From contig JAFUGI010000078.1 in assembly GCA_017469475.1 (NCBI GenBank), positions 1,912 through 65,911 on the forward strand: a stretch of DNA of 64,000 nucleotides, read 5' to 3'. Below the pieces are notes generated by a model. That model did not search any database, was not told where the DNA came from, and saw only the letters and a list, made by a program, of their open reading frames with translations. Of the stretch, positions 29,840 through 62,752 are shown piece by piece. Numbering within the stretch: position 1 is the first letter of the stretch; each line of letters starts with the position of its first letter. The translations under genes were made by a program, and so were the position numbers. Source of the DNA: Oscillibacter sp. Its GTDB lineage: Bacteria > Bacillota > Clostridia > Oscillospirales > Oscillospiraceae.

Positions 29840-29862
29840 AGTGATACATTGGAATAATGAGG

Positions 29863-30010
29863 CGTCCGGTAGGTAAGGCTACCACAGGGATATGGATCGC
29901 TGCCGCGAAATGATGGAGACATCATGAGATGGTTTGAACAGGCGATATCGAAACGAAGGTATCATCTAACGCGATTTCACCGCCTTGTGAGGCTAAAGCT
30001 TGAACGGTCA
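29863..30010 (+). ncRNA. M-box (ykoK) Mg2+-sensing riboswitch
   Basis: Conserved blocks GUAGGUAAGGCU, GCUGCCGCGAAA, AACAG, AUCGAAA..AAGGU, GCUAAAGCU in order, upstream of mgtE. Confidence 0.88.
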
Positions 30011-30043
30011 GGAAGCGGCGTGGGCCGTATTCCGGGAAGTCAG

Positions 30044-47317: not shown

Positions 47318-47381
47318 CCCCAGGCTATAGCTGTCCATATCCAACAGGTGTTACCGCTCCCGCGCCATTTTCTGATATGAT
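47313..47381 (+). promoter_or_regulatory. Putative LysR box (T-N11-A) overlapping the lysR stop, plus extended -10 for the LysE gene
   Basis: CATAGCCCCAGGCTATA at 47313-47329; TG-A-TATGAT at 47373-47381. Confidence 0.55.
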
Positions 47382-47406
47382 TTTGCTCAGAAAGGCGGTG
47401 GCGGTC

Positions 47407-47991
47407 ATGCCGGTCGAAATCTGGAGGAGCTTTCTCATCTACTGCGGGATCAATGCCTTCACCCCGGGGCCAGGGAACATCCTTGCACTGGACACGGTGG
47501 CAAATTACGGGTGGGCACGGGGGCGGCCCCTGTTTTTCGGGATCTTCACCGGGTATTATCTCGTCCAGCTCCTGTGCGCGGCGGCAGTTTACGGGGTCAG
47601 CGCCGTGTTTCCCCATGCGCTGGTGCTCATGAAATATGTGGGCGCCGCATACATTTTGTATCTGGCGGTCCACATCGTGCTGAGCCGACCGGCACAGTCC
47701 GGCGGAGAGCGGTCCGCCTCCTTCGCCCAGGGCTTCGCCCTTCAGCTGGTCAACATCAAGATCTACCTCTTCGGCATCACGGCCCTGACGGGTTTTGTGG
47801 TCCCCTTCGGCGCCTCTCCGGCTGCTCTGCTGCGCTTCGCGCTTCTGATTGCCTCCATCGGCTCCCTCGCCACTGGCACGTGGATCTGCATGGGCGTGTT
47901 GATCCGGAGCTTTTACAGCCGGCACTACCGGCTCATCCACCTCCTTTTGGCGCTGGCCCTGCTGAGATGCGCGTACAGCATGCTCCGGTAG
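47407..47991 (+). CDS. LysE/RhtB family exporter, EamB-like (cysteine/O-acetylserine efflux)
   Basis: TPGPGNI, GAAY..YLA, F..GF.LQ.VN.K motifs. Confidence 0.85.
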   Translation: MPVEIWRSFLIYCGINAFTPGPGNILALDTVANYGWARGRPLFFGIFTGYYLVQLLCAAAVYGVSAVFPHALVLMKYVGAAYILYLAVHIVLSRPAQSGGERSASFAQGFALQLVNIKIYLFGITALTGFVVPFGASPAALLRFALLIASIGSLATGTWICMGVLIRSFYSRHYRLIHLLLALALLRCAYSMLR

Positions 47992-48014: not shown

Positions 48015-48048
48015 GCAAGGCGGCACAGCATACGCTGTGCCGCCTTGC
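48015..48048. terminator. 15-bp perfect inverted repeat, bidirectional terminator
   Basis: GCAAGGCGGCACAGC-ATAC-GCTGTGCCGCCTTGC between convergent genes. Confidence 0.75.
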
Positions 48049-48102: not shown

Positions 48103-49053
48103 TCAGACGATCTCCTTGAGGTGCTCCATGTTCTTGCGGATGCCCTCGCAGCACTCGTGGAAGGTGGCCTTCTCGGCCTCCGTCAGCGGAAGCTCGATGA
48201 CCTGCTCCACACCGTCCTTGCCGATGAGGCAGGGCACGCCGGCAAAGAGGCCGCTCTCGCCGTACTCCCCCTCCAGGCCCATACTGGCGGGCAGGATCTG
48301 CTTTTCGTCGTGCAGCACGATGTGGACCATGCGGGCGGCGGTGGCGGCGATGCCGTACTCCGTGCACTGCTTGCCCTTGAAGGTCACCCAGCCGCCGCCG
48401 ATGGCCTCCTTCTGCAGGGCCTCCCGGTCGAAGCGGAAGCGCTCGTCCGTCTGCGCCCAGGTGTCCAGGGGCACGCCCCGGAAGGACACGCAGGACCAGG
48501 GGGCGAATTGCAGTGCGCCGTGCTCGCCCAGCATATAGGCGGTGGTGGACTTGTGGTCGATGCCGGTCTGGCGGTTCAGGGCGGAGAGCAGGCGGGAGGT
48601 ATCCAGCCCGGTGCCGGTGCCGAACACGTGGCCTCTGGGAAGGCCCAGGCCCAGGGCCAGCTGGCGGGTCACGATGTCGCAGGGGTTGGAGATGTTGATG
48701 AGGATGCCGTCAAAGCCGGAGGCCTTGATCTTGTCCACATAGCTGTTCACGGCCTTGATGTTGAAGTTCATCTCGTCCAGCCGGTCGTTCCGGGCCACCA
48801 GCAGCCCGATGCTGCCCACGCTGTTGACGATGACATCCACATCGGCCAGGTCCGCAAAGTCCCCGATGCTCACCTTGACCCGGTGGGGGCAGTAAGCCAC
48901 GCAGTCCCGCAGGTCCTGGCACTCGCTGATGGCCTTCTGCTCGTTCATGTCGATGAGCACCAGCTCATCCGCAATGCCCTGGAGGGCAAGGCTGTAGGCG
49001 ACGTGGGCGCCCACATGGCCCAGGCCGATGATGGCGACCTTCCTTGTTTTCAT
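48103..49053 (-). CDS. LDH/MDH-superfamily L-2-hydroxyacid dehydrogenase, HicDH-like
   Basis: IIGLGHVG, ISNPCD, GTGTGLDTSR, LGEHG; substrate loop SVGSIGLLVARNDR lacks the LDH Gln / MDH Arg and is longer and hydrophobic. Confidence 0.88.
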   Translation of the reverse strand: MKTRKVAIIGLGHVGAHVAYSLALQGIADELVLIDMNEQKAISECQDLRDCVAYCPHRVKVSIGDFADLADVDVIVNSVGSIGLLVARNDRLDEMNFNIKAVNSYVDKIKASGFDGILINISNPCDIVTRQLALGLGLPRGHVFGTGTGLDTSRLLSALNRQTGIDHKSTTAYMLGEHGALQFAPWSCVSFRGVPLDTWAQTDERFRFDREALQKEAIGGGWVTFKGKQCTEYGIAATAARMVHIVLHDEKQILPASMGLEGEYGESGLFAGVPCLIGKDGVEQVIELPLTEAEKATFHECCEGIRKNMEHLKEIV

Positions 49054-49145
49054 GGGGAAACACTCCTTCTATCTGAAATTGACGATTTGGGTCCTCATGG
49101 GATTCTCTCACAAAAAGCGGCGCTTGTCCACCCTTTGCGGGTCAC

Positions 49146-50693
49146 TCACATGCCAAAATTCGGAAACAGCACCAAAGAGTAGAGCATGGCCAGCACCATG
49201 TACAGCACGATCAGCACGGCGAAGGCCACCAGGGTCTTCTTCATGACCAGGTTCTCGTGCCCGATCTCGCCCACGGTGGCGCAGGCGGCCACGGTGTTGT
49301 TGGGGCAGATCAGGTTGCCGAGAGACGCGGCGGCGTTCTGCCCGGCAAAGACGGTGACGGGGTTCATGCCCAGGGCGCCGGCGGCCTCCATGTGCATGCC
49401 GGCGAACATGATGTTGGAGCCGAGACCGGTGCCGGTGATGAAGGAGCCCAGGCTTCCGATGATGACCGCCGCCGCCGGATAGGCGGACTTGGCGACGCCC
49501 GCGATGGAGCCGGCGATGAGGGACATCATGCCGGTGGTCTGGGACTGCATGATGTAGGCCATCACCAGGAGGCTGCCCATGGTGATCATGACCGGCATGA
49601 CGCTTTTGATGGTCTCACCGAAGATGGCGTGCAGGTCTCTCCAGCGCACGTGCAGGGTGATGGCGCCCAGGATGCCGCAGAGAAGAATGACCGCGTCCAC
49701 CCAGGAGATGTAGCCGAAGGTGCACAGGGTCGCGAAGCCGCGCTCCGGCCAGAGGGCGGGCACGCCGTACCGGATGAGGGGCAGGAGGATCAGCATATAG
49801 ATGTAGGGGGAGAGGGCCTGGAAGGGGCCGTACTTATGCTCCACCTTCTCCGGCGCGTGGTAGCGGTACTCCTCCGTGGTCTTGATGGGGATGAACTTCA
49901 CATAGAGCACGGAGAGGACGATGGCGGAGAGGCCCGTTCCCATGGAGGTGACCTCCGGGCCCACGAAGTTGGAGAGCAGAAAGTACATGATCCCGGTGGT
50001 GACGCCGGCATAGGTCAGATAGGGCACGATGCCCTTGAAGGCCTTGCGGCCGAAGGCCAGGGCGATGATGAGGAAGGGGATCACCATGGCGCCGAACATG
50101 TGGAAGCGGCCCACCATGGCGGAGTTGAGGGCGTTGGTGGAGACCCCGGCCTCCACCAGAGCCGCGCCGCCGTTGATGGTGGTGAGGCCCGCGCCGCCCC
50201 AGGAGCAGGGCGTGGCGTCGCCCATGAGGGCCACGGCGATGGCCGTGATGGGCTCAAAGCCCAGCGCCACCAGGAAGGGGGCCGCGATGGCCGCCGGAGC
50301 GCCGGCGCCGGCCGCGCCCTCCAGGAAGATGGGCACCATGAAGCCGATGATGATGAGCTGGACCCGCCGGTCCTCGCCGGAGAGGCGGGCGATGGTGTTT
50401 TTCACGTCCTCGATGGCCCCGGTCTTTTTCAGGGTGTTGAGGATGACGAAGGCGCCGAAGACCATGACCACGATCTTGAAGCCCTCCTTGATGCCCTTCC
50501 AGAGCTGGGCGTCCATTGCCGCCACGTTCTCCTGGAAGGTCAGGCCCTGGACGTTGAAGTAGGTCAGCGCCAGCAGCACGGTCCACACCAGGGCGATGGG
50601 GGCCACCCGCTTGGCGGACTGCTTGAAGGCCAGGATGCCCACCAGCACCACGATGATGGGGCTCAGGGCAATGAGGAAATTGATGAACTGCAT
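49146..50693 (-). CDS. L-lactate permease (LctP) family transporter
   Basis: FLEGAAG.G.PAAI.AP.LVALGF, G.LG.FITG....SN..F; many TMs. Confidence 0.85.
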   Translation of the reverse strand: MQFINFLIALSPIIVVLVGILAFKQSAKRVAPIALVWTVLLALTYFNVQGLTFQENVAAMDAQLWKGIKEGFKIVVMVFGAFVILNTLKKTGAIEDVKNTIARLSGEDRRVQLIIIGFMVPIFLEGAAGAGAPAAIAAPFLVALGFEPITAIAVALMGDATPCSWGGAGLTTINGGAALVEAGVSTNALNSAMVGRFHMFGAMVIPFLIIALAFGRKAFKGIVPYLTYAGVTTGIMYFLLSNFVGPEVTSMGTGLSAIVLSVLYVKFIPIKTTEEYRYHAPEKVEHKYGPFQALSPYIYMLILLPLIRYGVPALWPERGFATLCTFGYISWVDAVILLCGILGAITLHVRWRDLHAIFGETIKSVMPVMITMGSLLVMAYIMQSQTTGMMSLIAGSIAGVAKSAYPAAAVIIGSLGSFITGTGLGSNIMFAGMHMEAAGALGMNPVTVFAGQNAAASLGNLICPNNTVAACATVGEIGHENLVMKKTLVAFAVLIVLYMVLAMLYSLVLFPNFGM

Positions 50694-50784
50694 GGAAGAT
50701 CAAACCTTTCTCTCGAATCTCTTTGGAACTGCGCGGGGGAAACGCGGTCTTTCAGGCTCCTCCTTTTCTCCGGTTTTTTGCGGC

Positions 50785-51062
50785 AAAAAAATCCCTGAGA
50801 CCTTGCGGTCTCAGGGACGAACATGCATTCGCGGTACCACCCTGATTCCCTCCCCCACAGGGGGAGAGCATCTCTCTCGGACTCAGACAAGCCCATGGCC
50901 TTCTAACGGGGCCGGCCGGGCCACACTACTACCTCCCGCGGGAGGATTGGCATGGCCTGCTCGGGAGGCAGACTGCCCTGTGGCGCTCCCTGCCGGCTCC
51001 CACCGCCCGCCGGCTCTCTGAAAGGTCTCACCACGGCAAAACTCCGTCGTCGCAATTCACGA
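50785..51062 (-). ncRNA. T-box riboswitch (transcriptional) with terminator
   Basis: Stem I (CAGAGAG, GGUGGGA), Stem II AGUA loop, CCGUUA, AAUCAGGGUGGUACCGCG T-box (fwd 50830-50842), UUCGUCCC antiterminator, terminator CCCUGAGACC-GCAA-GGUCUCAGGG-AU7. Confidence 0.95.
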
Positions 51063-51078
51063 TTTTTGCAGCAAAATT

Positions 51079-51108
51079 ATGCTACCATAGGGGCGCGGCG
51101 TTTGTCAA
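51079..51108 (-). promoter_or_regulatory. Sigma70 promoter of the T-box leader
   Basis: TTGACA-18-TAGCAT with TG extension. Confidence 0.65.
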
Positions 51109-51160: not shown

Positions 51161-52372
51161 TTACTCCCTGCGGATGCGCCAGCTGACCGCGGAGGCCAGG
51201 GCGCACAGGGCGATGTCGATGCACCAGATGGCGCCGTAGTTCCCGCTGCGGCTGATGAAGATGCCCCCCAGCCAGGAGCTCAGGAAGGCCCCCACCTGAT
51301 GGCAGACGAAGGTGATGCCGAAGAGCAGTCCCAGCTCCGCCGCGCCGAAGCGGCGGGCGATGATCTGGGAGGTGGGGGTCACCGTGGCATCCCCCGTCAT
51401 GCCCAGCACGGCGATGAAGCAGAACACGGCGGCCGCAGTTTTGGGGAGCAGGAACAGGAAGACCGCCACCGCCACGGCCCGGATGCCGTACAGCGAGCCC
51501 AGCACGCTCCTGAGAGGGAAGCGGCGGCAGAGAACCCCGCACAGCACCGACCCCATCATGGTCATGATGCCGAAGGCGGTGTAGGCCAGGGCCGCCGTCT
51601 CCTCCGGGATGCCGTAGGACACGATCTGGGAATAGATGTGGGTGTGGATGATGCACATGTGGAAGCCGCAGGTGGCAAAGCCCGCCATGAGCCGGCGGTA
51701 GTCACCCTCCCGCAGGGCCCGGCCCAGCCGCTCTCCCGCTCCTGCCGCCGGCGCGGCGCTTTCCGGGGCGGCGCGGTATTTCCCGGCGGCCGCGGCGATC
51801 CAGAAGACCACCGGCAGCAGCACCGCCACCGGGATGCACAAAAGCCGGAGGGTCGCCGCGATGCCCACCCCCGCCTGGAGGCGCTGGATCAGCGGCGAGA
51901 GCAGAGAGGTCCCCACGCCGCTGGCGGCGTTGAGGATACCGGAGACGATGGCCGCCCGGTCCCGGCCCAGAAGGGGCGAGATGGTGCCCATGATGATGCC
52001 GAAGCACACCGCCCCCGTGCCGGAGAAGAACAGCAGACTCAGCGTCATCAGCAGGGCCGCCTGAGACGCTGCAAGCGGTGTGAGAAAGAGGCCGGAGAGC
52101 ATCAGAAGCACGCCGGCGGAGAGCACCGTGCCGTTGGACCGCTTCAGGGCCAGAAGTCCGAAGAGGGGCTATGTCACGCCGTACATCAGCTGGCCCGCCG
52201 CCGCCACGAAGGAGACCTCCTCATAGCTCAGCGACACGTGGGCCGCCAGGGCCTTTACGATGAGGCCCATGTTGCAGCGCATGCCGCCGCTGACCATGTA
52301 CAGGAGAAAGGCCGCCGCGCTCAGCAGTATCGCCGTGCCCCGGCTCACCGTTTCCGCCCGCTCAGAGGGCAT
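51161..52372 (-). pseudogene. MFS transporter interrupted by a single in-frame TAG at 52169-52171
   Basis: ORF pieces 52169..52372 and 51161..52126 are in the same frame; read-through gives GVT*PLFGLLA where MFS homologs typically have QP.FG. Confidence 0.8.
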
Positions 52373-62535: not shown

Positions 62536-62583
62536 CGGAGAAGAAAACGCGCAGAATGCCCGCGGACATCCCGCAACATCCTA

Positions 62584-62752
62584 CTCTGTCCTTTTACCTG
62601 AGAGATTCGGCAGCCTGCGCCGCCTTGCACCTTCGGTCCCCGTTTCCGGGCTTCTCCAGAGCCACATCCATCCTTAGTCCCCACCCGGAGCGCCGGGCGC
62701 CTGAGAGTTTCACTCCTTCGGCAGGCCAGAGGCCGTTTCCCTAAGAACTTCG
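62584..62752 (-). ncRNA. Tandem glycine riboswitch
   Basis: Two aptamers: GGGAA..GCCGAAGGAG..CUCUCAGG..GGAC and CUCUGGAGA..ACCGAAGG..UCUCUCAGG..GGACAGAG. Confidence 0.93.

Follow-up and report, generated by a model that had tools for sequence, protein, structure and literature searches.

A predicted leucine T-box before LctP-type permease and hydroxyisocaproate dehydrogenase-like genes of Oscillibacter sp. and a probable route of branched-chain hydroxy-acid salvage

T-box riboswitches switch genes ON when the cognate transfer RNA (tRNA) is uncharged. A leader of this type before two genes that public records label L-lactate permease and L-lactate dehydrogenase (L-LDH) raises the question of what such genes may have to do with a shortage of an amino acid. 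This arrangement was found in a stretch of 64,000 nucleotides (nt) from Oscillibacter sp. (assembly GCA_017469475.1, contig JAFUGI010000078.1), which is called here the window and to which the coordinates refer unless another locus is named. The answer that we favour, and regard as fairly probable on comparative sequence grounds, is that the two genes form an operon induced by Leu/Ile starvation for the uptake of acids of the L-2-hydroxyisocaproate type, their oxidation to the 2-oxo acid and transamination.

An earlier interpretation of the same DNA, the sequence-only reading, had already suggested the import of a 2-hydroxy acid, its oxidation and its transamination upon amino-acid starvation. 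This proposal is now supported by the leucine specifier of the T-box, by the gene ilvE of a branched-chain aminotransferase in 37 related operons, by an Ile/Leu-rich leader open reading frame (ORF) in about 69 of the related loci and by the lack of ilvC in 14 of 16 surveyed carriers of the operon. The same reading had placed a promoter and a full transcriptional T-box directly 5' of an LctP-family permease gene, followed 92 bp further on the same strand by a gene of the lactate/malate dehydrogenase (LDH/MDH) family. The Rfam match, RNA folds and Pfam domains bear out both parts of this layout, and the strand is the minus one for the whole array from promoter to dehydrogenase at 48103-51108. 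In the order of transcription, the features are the following.

51079-51108, minus strand: sigma-70-type promoter with TTGACA at 51103-51108, an 18-nt spacer and a TG-extended TAGCAT at 51079-51084.
50810-51059, minus strand: T-box leader (Rfam RF00230) with Stem I including a K-turn, a specifier loop and a distal AGAGA/GGUG platform, Stems II and III, the T-box sequence and the antiterminator.
50969-50971, minus strand: specifier codon CUG (Leu) in the calibrated frame, then C, the helix strand CUCC, C and the 3' K-turn strand GAGC.
50830-50847, minus strand: conserved T-box sequence AAUCAGGGUGGUACCGCG, with UGGU at 50836-50839 and a predicted pairing with the tRNA 3' end A73-CCA.
50785-50818, minus strand: intrinsic terminator, according to its fold, with a 12-bp stem and GCAA loop (50791-50818), then U7.
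49146-50693, minus strand: permease of the LctP family (Pfam Lactate_perm PF02652), 515 aa, divergent clade.
49054-49145, minus strand: intergenic spacer of exactly 92 nt, which carries the ribosome-binding site GAAGGAG of the dehydrogenase gene.
48103-49053, minus strand: L-2-hydroxyacid dehydrogenase of the LDH/MDH superfamily (Ldh_1_N and Ldh_1_C) with a substrate pocket like that of L-2-hydroxyisocaproate dehydrogenase (HicDH), 316 aa.
48015-48048, minus strand: strong intrinsic terminator closing the two-gene operon, with a 15-bp stem that contains 11 GC pairs.

The promoter matches the consensus in 10 of 12 positions, and TG precedes its -10 element. Terminator search and folding revealed no convincing terminator inside the 92-nt spacer between the two genes.

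Is the leader a genuine T-box? In the Infernal search, it matched RF00230 in full length (model positions 1-219) with 87.7 bits and an E-value of 1.6e-19, in agreement with the sequence-only reading. The curated gathering cut-off of this family is 93 bits, and because the score lies under it the leader is unseen in a default Rfam scan; it was recovered by an E-value threshold instead. A scan of the whole genome gave 17 T-boxes, 14 of which score under the cut-off and three of which pass it, and the leaders before valS, leuS and ileS obtained 88, 76 and 76 bits, respectively. The low score may therefore be considered a compositional effect in a GC-rich genome and not a structural defect. The modules of Stem I are present, namely the K-turn GCGACGAC/CGAGC, the helix GGAG/CUCC, the AGAGA motif at 51015-51019 and the GGUG platform. 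The terminator folds with -31.6 kcal/mol (z = -3.98), an antiterminator with a 7-nt bulge forms once the terminator 3' arm is omitted from the fold, and the 5' arm of the terminator overlaps the 3' strand of the antiterminator, which makes the two folds mutually exclusive.

It could be argued that the T-box is a relic which has decayed or lost its function and that the genes are constitutive or obey another signal, since the score is sub-threshold, the specifier loop is non-canonical (it lacks the AGUA/GAA S-turn and has C after the codon) and the closest relative of the operon, L001, has no T-box. In our opinion, this is extremely improbable, because all modules are intact and the competing terminator and antiterminator are strong, because most T-boxes of this genome, including those of leuS, ileS and valS, are sub-threshold as well and the leuS T-box also lacks the GAA motif, and because four further operons carry Leu T-boxes. 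A recent duplication of another T-box of the genome was also considered and rejected: the leader shares about 50% identity with each of them, the leuS one included, and only 51% with the type found in L002 and L075.

The next question is which amino acid the leader would sense. The specifier frame was calibrated on the same genome because the Infernal alignment is ambiguous in the specifier loop, where one inserted base offers UCU. The calibration set consisted of the T-boxes upstream of leuA (CUG), leuS (CUG), ilvC (AUC), ileS (AUC), valS (GUC), tyrS (UAC), glyQS (GGC), alaS (GCC), thrS (ACC) and cysE (UGC), the gene identities being confirmed by NCBIfam, and in these 10 T-boxes the specifier codon has its end exactly 6 nt upstream of GAG(C/U), the 3' strand of the K-turn. 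With the K-turn position of the target leader taken from the Infernal alignment, the calibrated frame gives CUG (Leu), in the context CUG-C-CUCC-C-GAGC, the same codon as in the leuS and leuA T-boxes of this genome. The serine codon UCU was rejected on account of the fixed 6-nt frame, the discriminator base and the CUC codons of relatives. UGGU in the bulge fits A73 of tRNA-Leu but does not fit G73 of tRNA-Ser. A-CCA is the 3' end of each of the five tRNA-Leu genes found in the genome and G-CCA that of every tRNA-Ser gene; tRNA-Leu(CAG) is encoded by two gene copies.

T-boxes were also found in four related operons (L002, L075, L128 and the truncated L129), about 51% identical to the target one. 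In the three with Stem I present (L002, L075 and L128), the specifier is CUC, also a leucine codon. As far as it can be read from the sequence, the T-box of the permease-dehydrogenase operon is thus specific to Leu. Two other T-boxes of the same genome are located at C177:10052-10264 (minus strand), before a polysaccharide-deacetylase-like membrane protein and with the specifier UUC (Phe) in the calibrated frame, and at C22:12552-12799 (minus strand), before an ABC substrate-binding lipoprotein. In the hisS T-box of this genome, no His codon was found in the simple specifier frame.

What, then, does the dehydrogenase act on? The protein, which contains SVGSIGLLVARNDR, consists of the domains PF00056 and PF02866 and is the sole member of the LDH/MDH family encoded in this 97%-complete genome. 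Against the L-LDH equivalog TIGR01771 it obtained 283.1 bits, below the cut-off of 303.55. The catalytic residues R109, N140, D168, R171 and H195 are conserved in at least 90% of the 77 members of its family, which has neither Gln102 of LDH nor Arg102 of MDH. Gln102 is the residue defining LDH specificity, and the positions of the enlarged pocket are known from LDH engineering and structural work on HicDH to matter for large 2-oxo acids. The substrate loop of the window enzyme reads VGSIGLLVARNDR, and the family consensus is VGKIELLRGTHDR-TEMDFT; twenty-odd ordinary clostridial LDH/MDH homologues all have AGxxQ/RKPGETRLDL and canonical clostridial LDHs AGxxQKPGETR. The family loop has a two-residue insertion at the site where the loop of L-HicDH (1HYH) is lengthened. 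At the place of the Ala-Ala-Tyr of LDH (Ala-Ala at positions 235-236) the family has Gly-Gly-Trp and HicDH has Gly-Gly-Phe, and alignments showed that residues of the fructose-1,6-bisphosphate (FBP) site are absent from the family.

The L-HicDH of Weissella (Lactobacillus) confusa (1HYH) therefore resembles the family in the LDH/MDH fold, the five catalytic residues, the missing Gln102, the position of the loop lengthening, the Gly-Gly with an aromatic residue and the absence of FBP-site residues. It differs in that the similarity is distant (190 bits by single sequence and 235 bits by family profile) and the family loop is two residues shorter than the HicDH loop. In the comparison with PDB entries, these scores put HicDH in third and second place, respectively, and the candidate view of HicDH as the top match by overall similarity or profile search was not borne out, one true LDH ranking ahead. 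A maximum-likelihood tree separated HicDH together with the family from 29 canonical LDH/MDH sequences (support 96/91). The HicDH resemblance proposed in the sequence-only reading has held as far as the substrate-pocket signature goes, and HicDH as the sister of the family is favoured in the tree and not proven. A HicDH-like function of the dehydrogenase is supported by these features of its sequence. To our knowledge, no permease, ilvE or T-box context has been reported for HicDH, which is usually seen as a reductive enzyme.

The permease belongs to the same family as the lactate and glycolate permeases LctP, LldP and GlcA (TC 2.A.14, PF02652) and is of similar length. It scores 261 bits against Lactate_perm PF02652 (cut-off 27), 248.9 bits against NCBIfam TIGR00795 (LctP), below the cut-off of 341.15, and far below the cut-offs of the LldP and GlcA equivalogs. 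It may therefore be placed in the superfamily and outside the characterised lactate and glycolate clades, from which it also differs in its regulation and in the genes it is paired with, both of which suggest branched-chain hydroxy acids and not lactate or glycolate. No other LctP-family gene occurs in this genome.

More about the function may be learnt from relatives of the operon. With the permease profile, 80 related loci were fetched, mostly from metagenome-assembled genomes, and the loci number at least 139 overall. The pairing of permease and dehydrogenase is kept in 79 of the 80, so the synteny is conserved. In 37 loci the dehydrogenase gene is followed on the same strand, at a distance of 16-65 nt, by ilvE (e.g., L056:6086-7144), whose product is a bona fide branched-chain aminotransferase according to NF009897 (453.7 bits, cut-off 307) and TIGR01123 (374 bits, cut-off 250). 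The transaminase that had earlier been only postulated is physically present in these operons. A class I/II aminotransferase takes the place of ilvE in four loci (L025, L026, L032 and L033). The permease tree groups the operons with ilvE in a large clade, and T-boxes are confined to the small clade of the window, a single clade of six rows (99/94). The closest permease relative, L001 (85% identical), has neither a T-box nor a leader ORF in its upstream region (L001:1500-2023); a SAM riboswitch is situated elsewhere on the L001 contig (6391-6487, minus strand).

If the T-box is restricted to one clade, what precedes the operon in the others? In about 69 loci, it is replaced by an Ile- and Leu-rich leader ORF some 70 codons long, which is preceded by a promoter and by a strong ribosome-binding site. 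Examples upstream of the permease are given below.

L055:3150-3500: leader ORF upstream of the permease.
L004:3150-3500: leader ORF upstream of the permease.
L061:3110-3500: leader ORF upstream of the permease.
L130:874-1170: leader ORF upstream of the permease.

The encoded peptide follows the pattern AQxxCAxxxC, then N, an Ile/Leu run, LDAxLLASIF and a Leu/Ile-rich part before the stop. A hairpin H1 in the ORF encodes AQxxCA. A second in-ORF hairpin, T1 (GGACGCC..GGCGUCC, in the LDA..ASIF segment), comes directly after the Ile run and is usually followed by U5; its pairing is kept through double changes in five of nine pairs, with alteration of the encoded amino acids. A strong terminator, T2, lies 15-50 nt past the leader stop codon and 40-130 nt before the permease. 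Leu and Ile make up 72% of the hydrophobic residues of the leader before T1 and 64% after it, compared with 29% in the permease membrane segments, relative to which Val, Ala, Gly and Phe are depleted. Ile occupies 32% and Leu 22% of the six codons preceding T1.

The region matched no Rfam family. No antiterminator against T2 was detectable, the duplexes between the ORF tail and the T2 5' arm being no better than shuffled ones (mean z +0.17, 43 loci), and a classical antiterminator in these leaders is accordingly unsupported by duplex energies. A small membrane protein as the sole meaning of the ORF is disfavoured by the excess of Leu and Ile, by the T1 pairing kept despite amino-acid changes and by the placement of T2. 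Leader-peptide attenuators, such as ilvL and leuL of E. coli and that of S. aureus (PMC5794164), likewise have an Ile/Leu-packed ORF with a promoter, a ribosome-binding site and an intrinsic terminator before the genes, and in the ilv operon of S. aureus a Leu-rich attenuator peptide is known (PMC5794164). The ORF of the relatives differs from these attenuators in being much longer, in its in-ORF hairpin with a U-run and in the lack of conserved antiterminator pairing. From its sequence features, it is a candidate for a new type of Ile/Leu-sensing leader, and the permease tree indicates that it is widespread and probably ancestral to the operon family. In the window itself, the stretch from the T-box terminator to the permease start contains, at 50747-50768 (minus strand), a strong Shine-Dalgarno-like GAAAAGGAGGAG, to which no start codon is suitably spaced, and then CUGAAAGAC; this nonamer equals the conserved RLKD-coding motif that ends the leader ORF in one group of relatives (L003-L010). 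This motif may be a remnant of a replaced leader ORF.

These data bear on the identity of the substrate. HicDH-type enzymes are broad in specificity, and the operon might serve another compound, such as phenyllactate, 2-hydroxy-4-methylthiobutyrate, 2-hydroxybutyrate or glycerate, or the enzyme might be unspecific, with leucine as a mere regulatory proxy. The class I/II aminotransferases of the four loci mentioned above and the UCU (Ser) that the Infernal alignment put in the specifier slot would agree with this. We consider it quite unlikely, in view of the Leu codon that the calibrated frame gives in every T-box copy read, the discriminator base, which excludes Ser, the branched-chain-specific equivalog found as the linked transaminase in 37 loci and the enrichment of the leaders in Ile and Leu and not in aromatic residues or Met.

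Do the carriers of the operon need branched-chain carbon skeletons? Four marker genes were surveyed in 16 carrier genomes sampled via their loci, including those behind L002, L075, L010, L015, L051, L059, L061, L040, L024, L054, L022, L005, L047, L068 and L021. Each of the 16 has one ilvE, located in the operon if the operon contains such a gene. The gene ilvC was found in only two, leuB in six and leuA above the cut-off in four; eight have no leuA-like gene at all, including the isolates Oscillibacter sp. MSJ-31 and Pygmaiobacter massiliensis. The ilvC model was validated by detection of the gene in 14 of 14 control genomes and in the genome of the window. Since 14 of the 16 carriers have no ilvC, they would need external branched-chain carbon skeletons, and most carriers are, judging by gene content, probably branched-chain amino-acid auxotrophs. 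Several carriers (e.g., L061, L068 and L040) keep leuA and leuB without ilvC, which suggests that they make Leu from valine-derived or salvaged 2-oxoisovalerate.

The survey also helps to weigh the simplest explanation offered by the public annotation, namely that the permease imports L-lactate and an ordinary L-LDH oxidises it to pyruvate, a precursor of Leu, Val and Ile, when leucine is short. Besides the annotation, the true LDH as the best PDB match and the position of the enzyme as the only LDH-family gene in the genome speak for it, and in the genome of the window, which has leuA and ilvC under T-boxes, extra pyruvate would be usable. Against it stand the family-wide absence of Gln102 together with the HicDH-like pocket changes, and the scores of both proteins under the curated LctP and L-LDH cut-offs. 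Moreover, the carriers without ilvC are unable to turn pyruvate into branched-chain amino acids and yet keep the operon with ilvE, and a Leu-specific control over the supply of such a central metabolite as pyruvate would be odd. This explanation therefore appears unlikely.

Several points weigh against branched-chain hydroxy-acid salvage as the role of the operon. The true LDH 3wsv (255 bits) is slightly closer to the dehydrogenase family overall than HicDH (235 bits). The placement of HicDH among canonical LDHs is not quite rejected by the approximately unbiased (AU) test (p = 0.058), and 1HYH sits on a long branch; we therefore see a HicDH-like function as supported by the pocket signature, and membership in a HicDH clade as possible. 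In the leader, C follows the specifier instead of the usual purine, as is also the case in the ileS T-box of this genome. The gene ilvE encodes the last step of de novo synthesis as well, and its linkage alone for this reason leaves room for a role of the operon in converting lactate to pyruvate. In the genome of the window, leuA and ilvC are both present, each behind a T-box of its own, and the single ilvE is located outside the operon; the route would therefore supplement synthesis here and not be essential. We know of no LctP-family member that carries branched-chain hydroxy acids. Finally, for 2-hydroxy acids, NAD-linked oxidation is uphill in thermodynamic terms, and transamination would have to pull it.

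How might such salvage proceed? In the proposed mechanism, uncharged tRNA-Leu(CAG) would pair with the leader at two sites, by its anticodon with the Stem I specifier CUG and by its free A73-CCA end with UGGU of the T-box bulge. This would stabilise the antiterminator and let RNA polymerase continue beyond the U7 terminator to the genes of the operon. The permease of the LctP type would then take up the L-2-hydroxy acid that corresponds to a branched-chain amino acid. The likeliest substrate is L-2-hydroxyisocaproate (HICA, also called leucic acid); 2-hydroxy-3-methylvalerate (HMVA) and 2-hydroxyisovalerate (HIVA) would probably be accepted too. The NAD-dependent HicDH-like dehydrogenase would oxidise the hydroxy acid to the 2-oxo acid, which the single branched-chain aminotransferase IlvE, encoded elsewhere in the genome of the window and within the operon in the 37 relatives, would convert to Leu (or Ile/Val). 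The view taken here of substrate, flux direction, co-transcription and in vivo response is inferred from sequence and gene context.

The same set of permease, dehydrogenase and ilvE could also work in reverse, with Leu converted by IlvE to 2-oxoisocaproate and then reduced to 2-hydroxyisocaproate for export by the permease, regenerating NAD+, as in lactic acid bacteria. LDH-family enzymes thermodynamically favour reduction. Furthermore, lactobacilli make and excrete such hydroxy acids (PMC11432647). This direction seems very improbable, because the T-box is ON at uncharged tRNA-Leu and breakdown of leucine during leucine starvation would be senseless, and because auxotrophic carriers would waste an essential nutrient. 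As the T-box responds to a lack of charged tRNA, only the anabolic direction makes regulatory sense.

The leader resembles known T-boxes of RF00230, such as those of B. subtilis tyrS and glyQS and the Leu T-boxes of leuS and ilv-leu, in the Stem I K-turn, specifier loop, distal platform, UGGN bulge and competing terminator, and its mechanism is presumed to be alike. It differs in its specifier loop, which has no S-turn and has C after the codon, and in its targets, which are an organic-acid permease of the LctP family and an LDH-family dehydrogenase and include no synthetase, biosynthetic gene or amino-acid transporter. The surveys of T-box regulons list the latter three as targets (Wels 2008, PMC2494555; Sun 2013, PMC3766115). 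Neither of these two surveys, with those of their supplements that were consulted, mentions a lactate permease, LDH or HicDH as a T-box target. Full-text literature searches yielded nothing relevant on a T-box with a lactate permease or on hydroxyisocaproate salvage. Lactate-permease-like and HicDH-like genes are, by these comparisons, a new target class for the T-box, and their operon probably represents a new salvage pathway.

The operon is flanked in the window by a gene of a LysE/RhtB-type exporter (47377-47991, plus strand), convergent to the dehydrogenase gene, and by a gene of a major facilitator superfamily (MFS) transporter (51161-52126, minus strand), whose end lies just upstream of the promoter of the T-box; in the related loci, neither of the two was found again. 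Two other riboswitches of the window score above the Rfam gathering thresholds, an M-box (Mg2+) at 29858-30020 (plus strand, 92.4 bits) and a glycine aptamer at 62576-62669 (minus strand, 61.3 bits).

T-boxes are reliable, readable labels of amino-acid specificity, and here such a leader assigns a Leu-linked function to genes annotated as "L-lactate permease" and "L-lactate dehydrogenase". If this assignment is true, a widespread mis-annotation in abundant gut Oscillospiraceae would be corrected, and the long-known HicDH-type enzymes would gain a physiological, anabolic role. The exchange of a T-box for a leader peptide on one and the same operon is a clean natural example of regulator exchange. 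The idea is directly testable in cultured isolates that carry the operon. These are Oscillibacter sp. MSJ-31, Pygmaiobacter massiliensis Marseille-P3336 and Anaeromassilibacillus An867, all three without ilvC, and also Hominicoprocola fusiformis.

Lactobacilli are known to produce branched-chain hydroxy acids (PMC11432647), and their release by hypoxic mammalian cells is described in a 2026 preprint (bioRxiv 10.64898/2026.08.24.746737). In a broader and more tentative generalisation, to which we give somewhat less than even chances, the permease, the L-2-hydroxyacid dehydrogenase and IlvE may constitute an unrecognised branched-chain hydroxy-acid salvage operon across gut and rumen Oscillospiraceae. 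Its control may lie with sensors of tRNA charging that can replace each other, in one clade the Leu T-box and elsewhere the long Ile/Leu leader ORF with an in-ORF terminator-like hairpin, whose read-out would not be the classical 2:3/3:4 type. In many species without ilvC, it might be the main or only route to Leu, Ile and Val besides amino-acid uptake, tied to HICA, HMVA and HIVA from lactobacilli, other fermenters and hypoxic host cells. If the favoured reading of the operon is right, salvage would also represent a cross-feeding link by which bioactive branched-chain hydroxy acids from lactobacilli and host cells feed bacteria that are mostly unable to make these amino acids.

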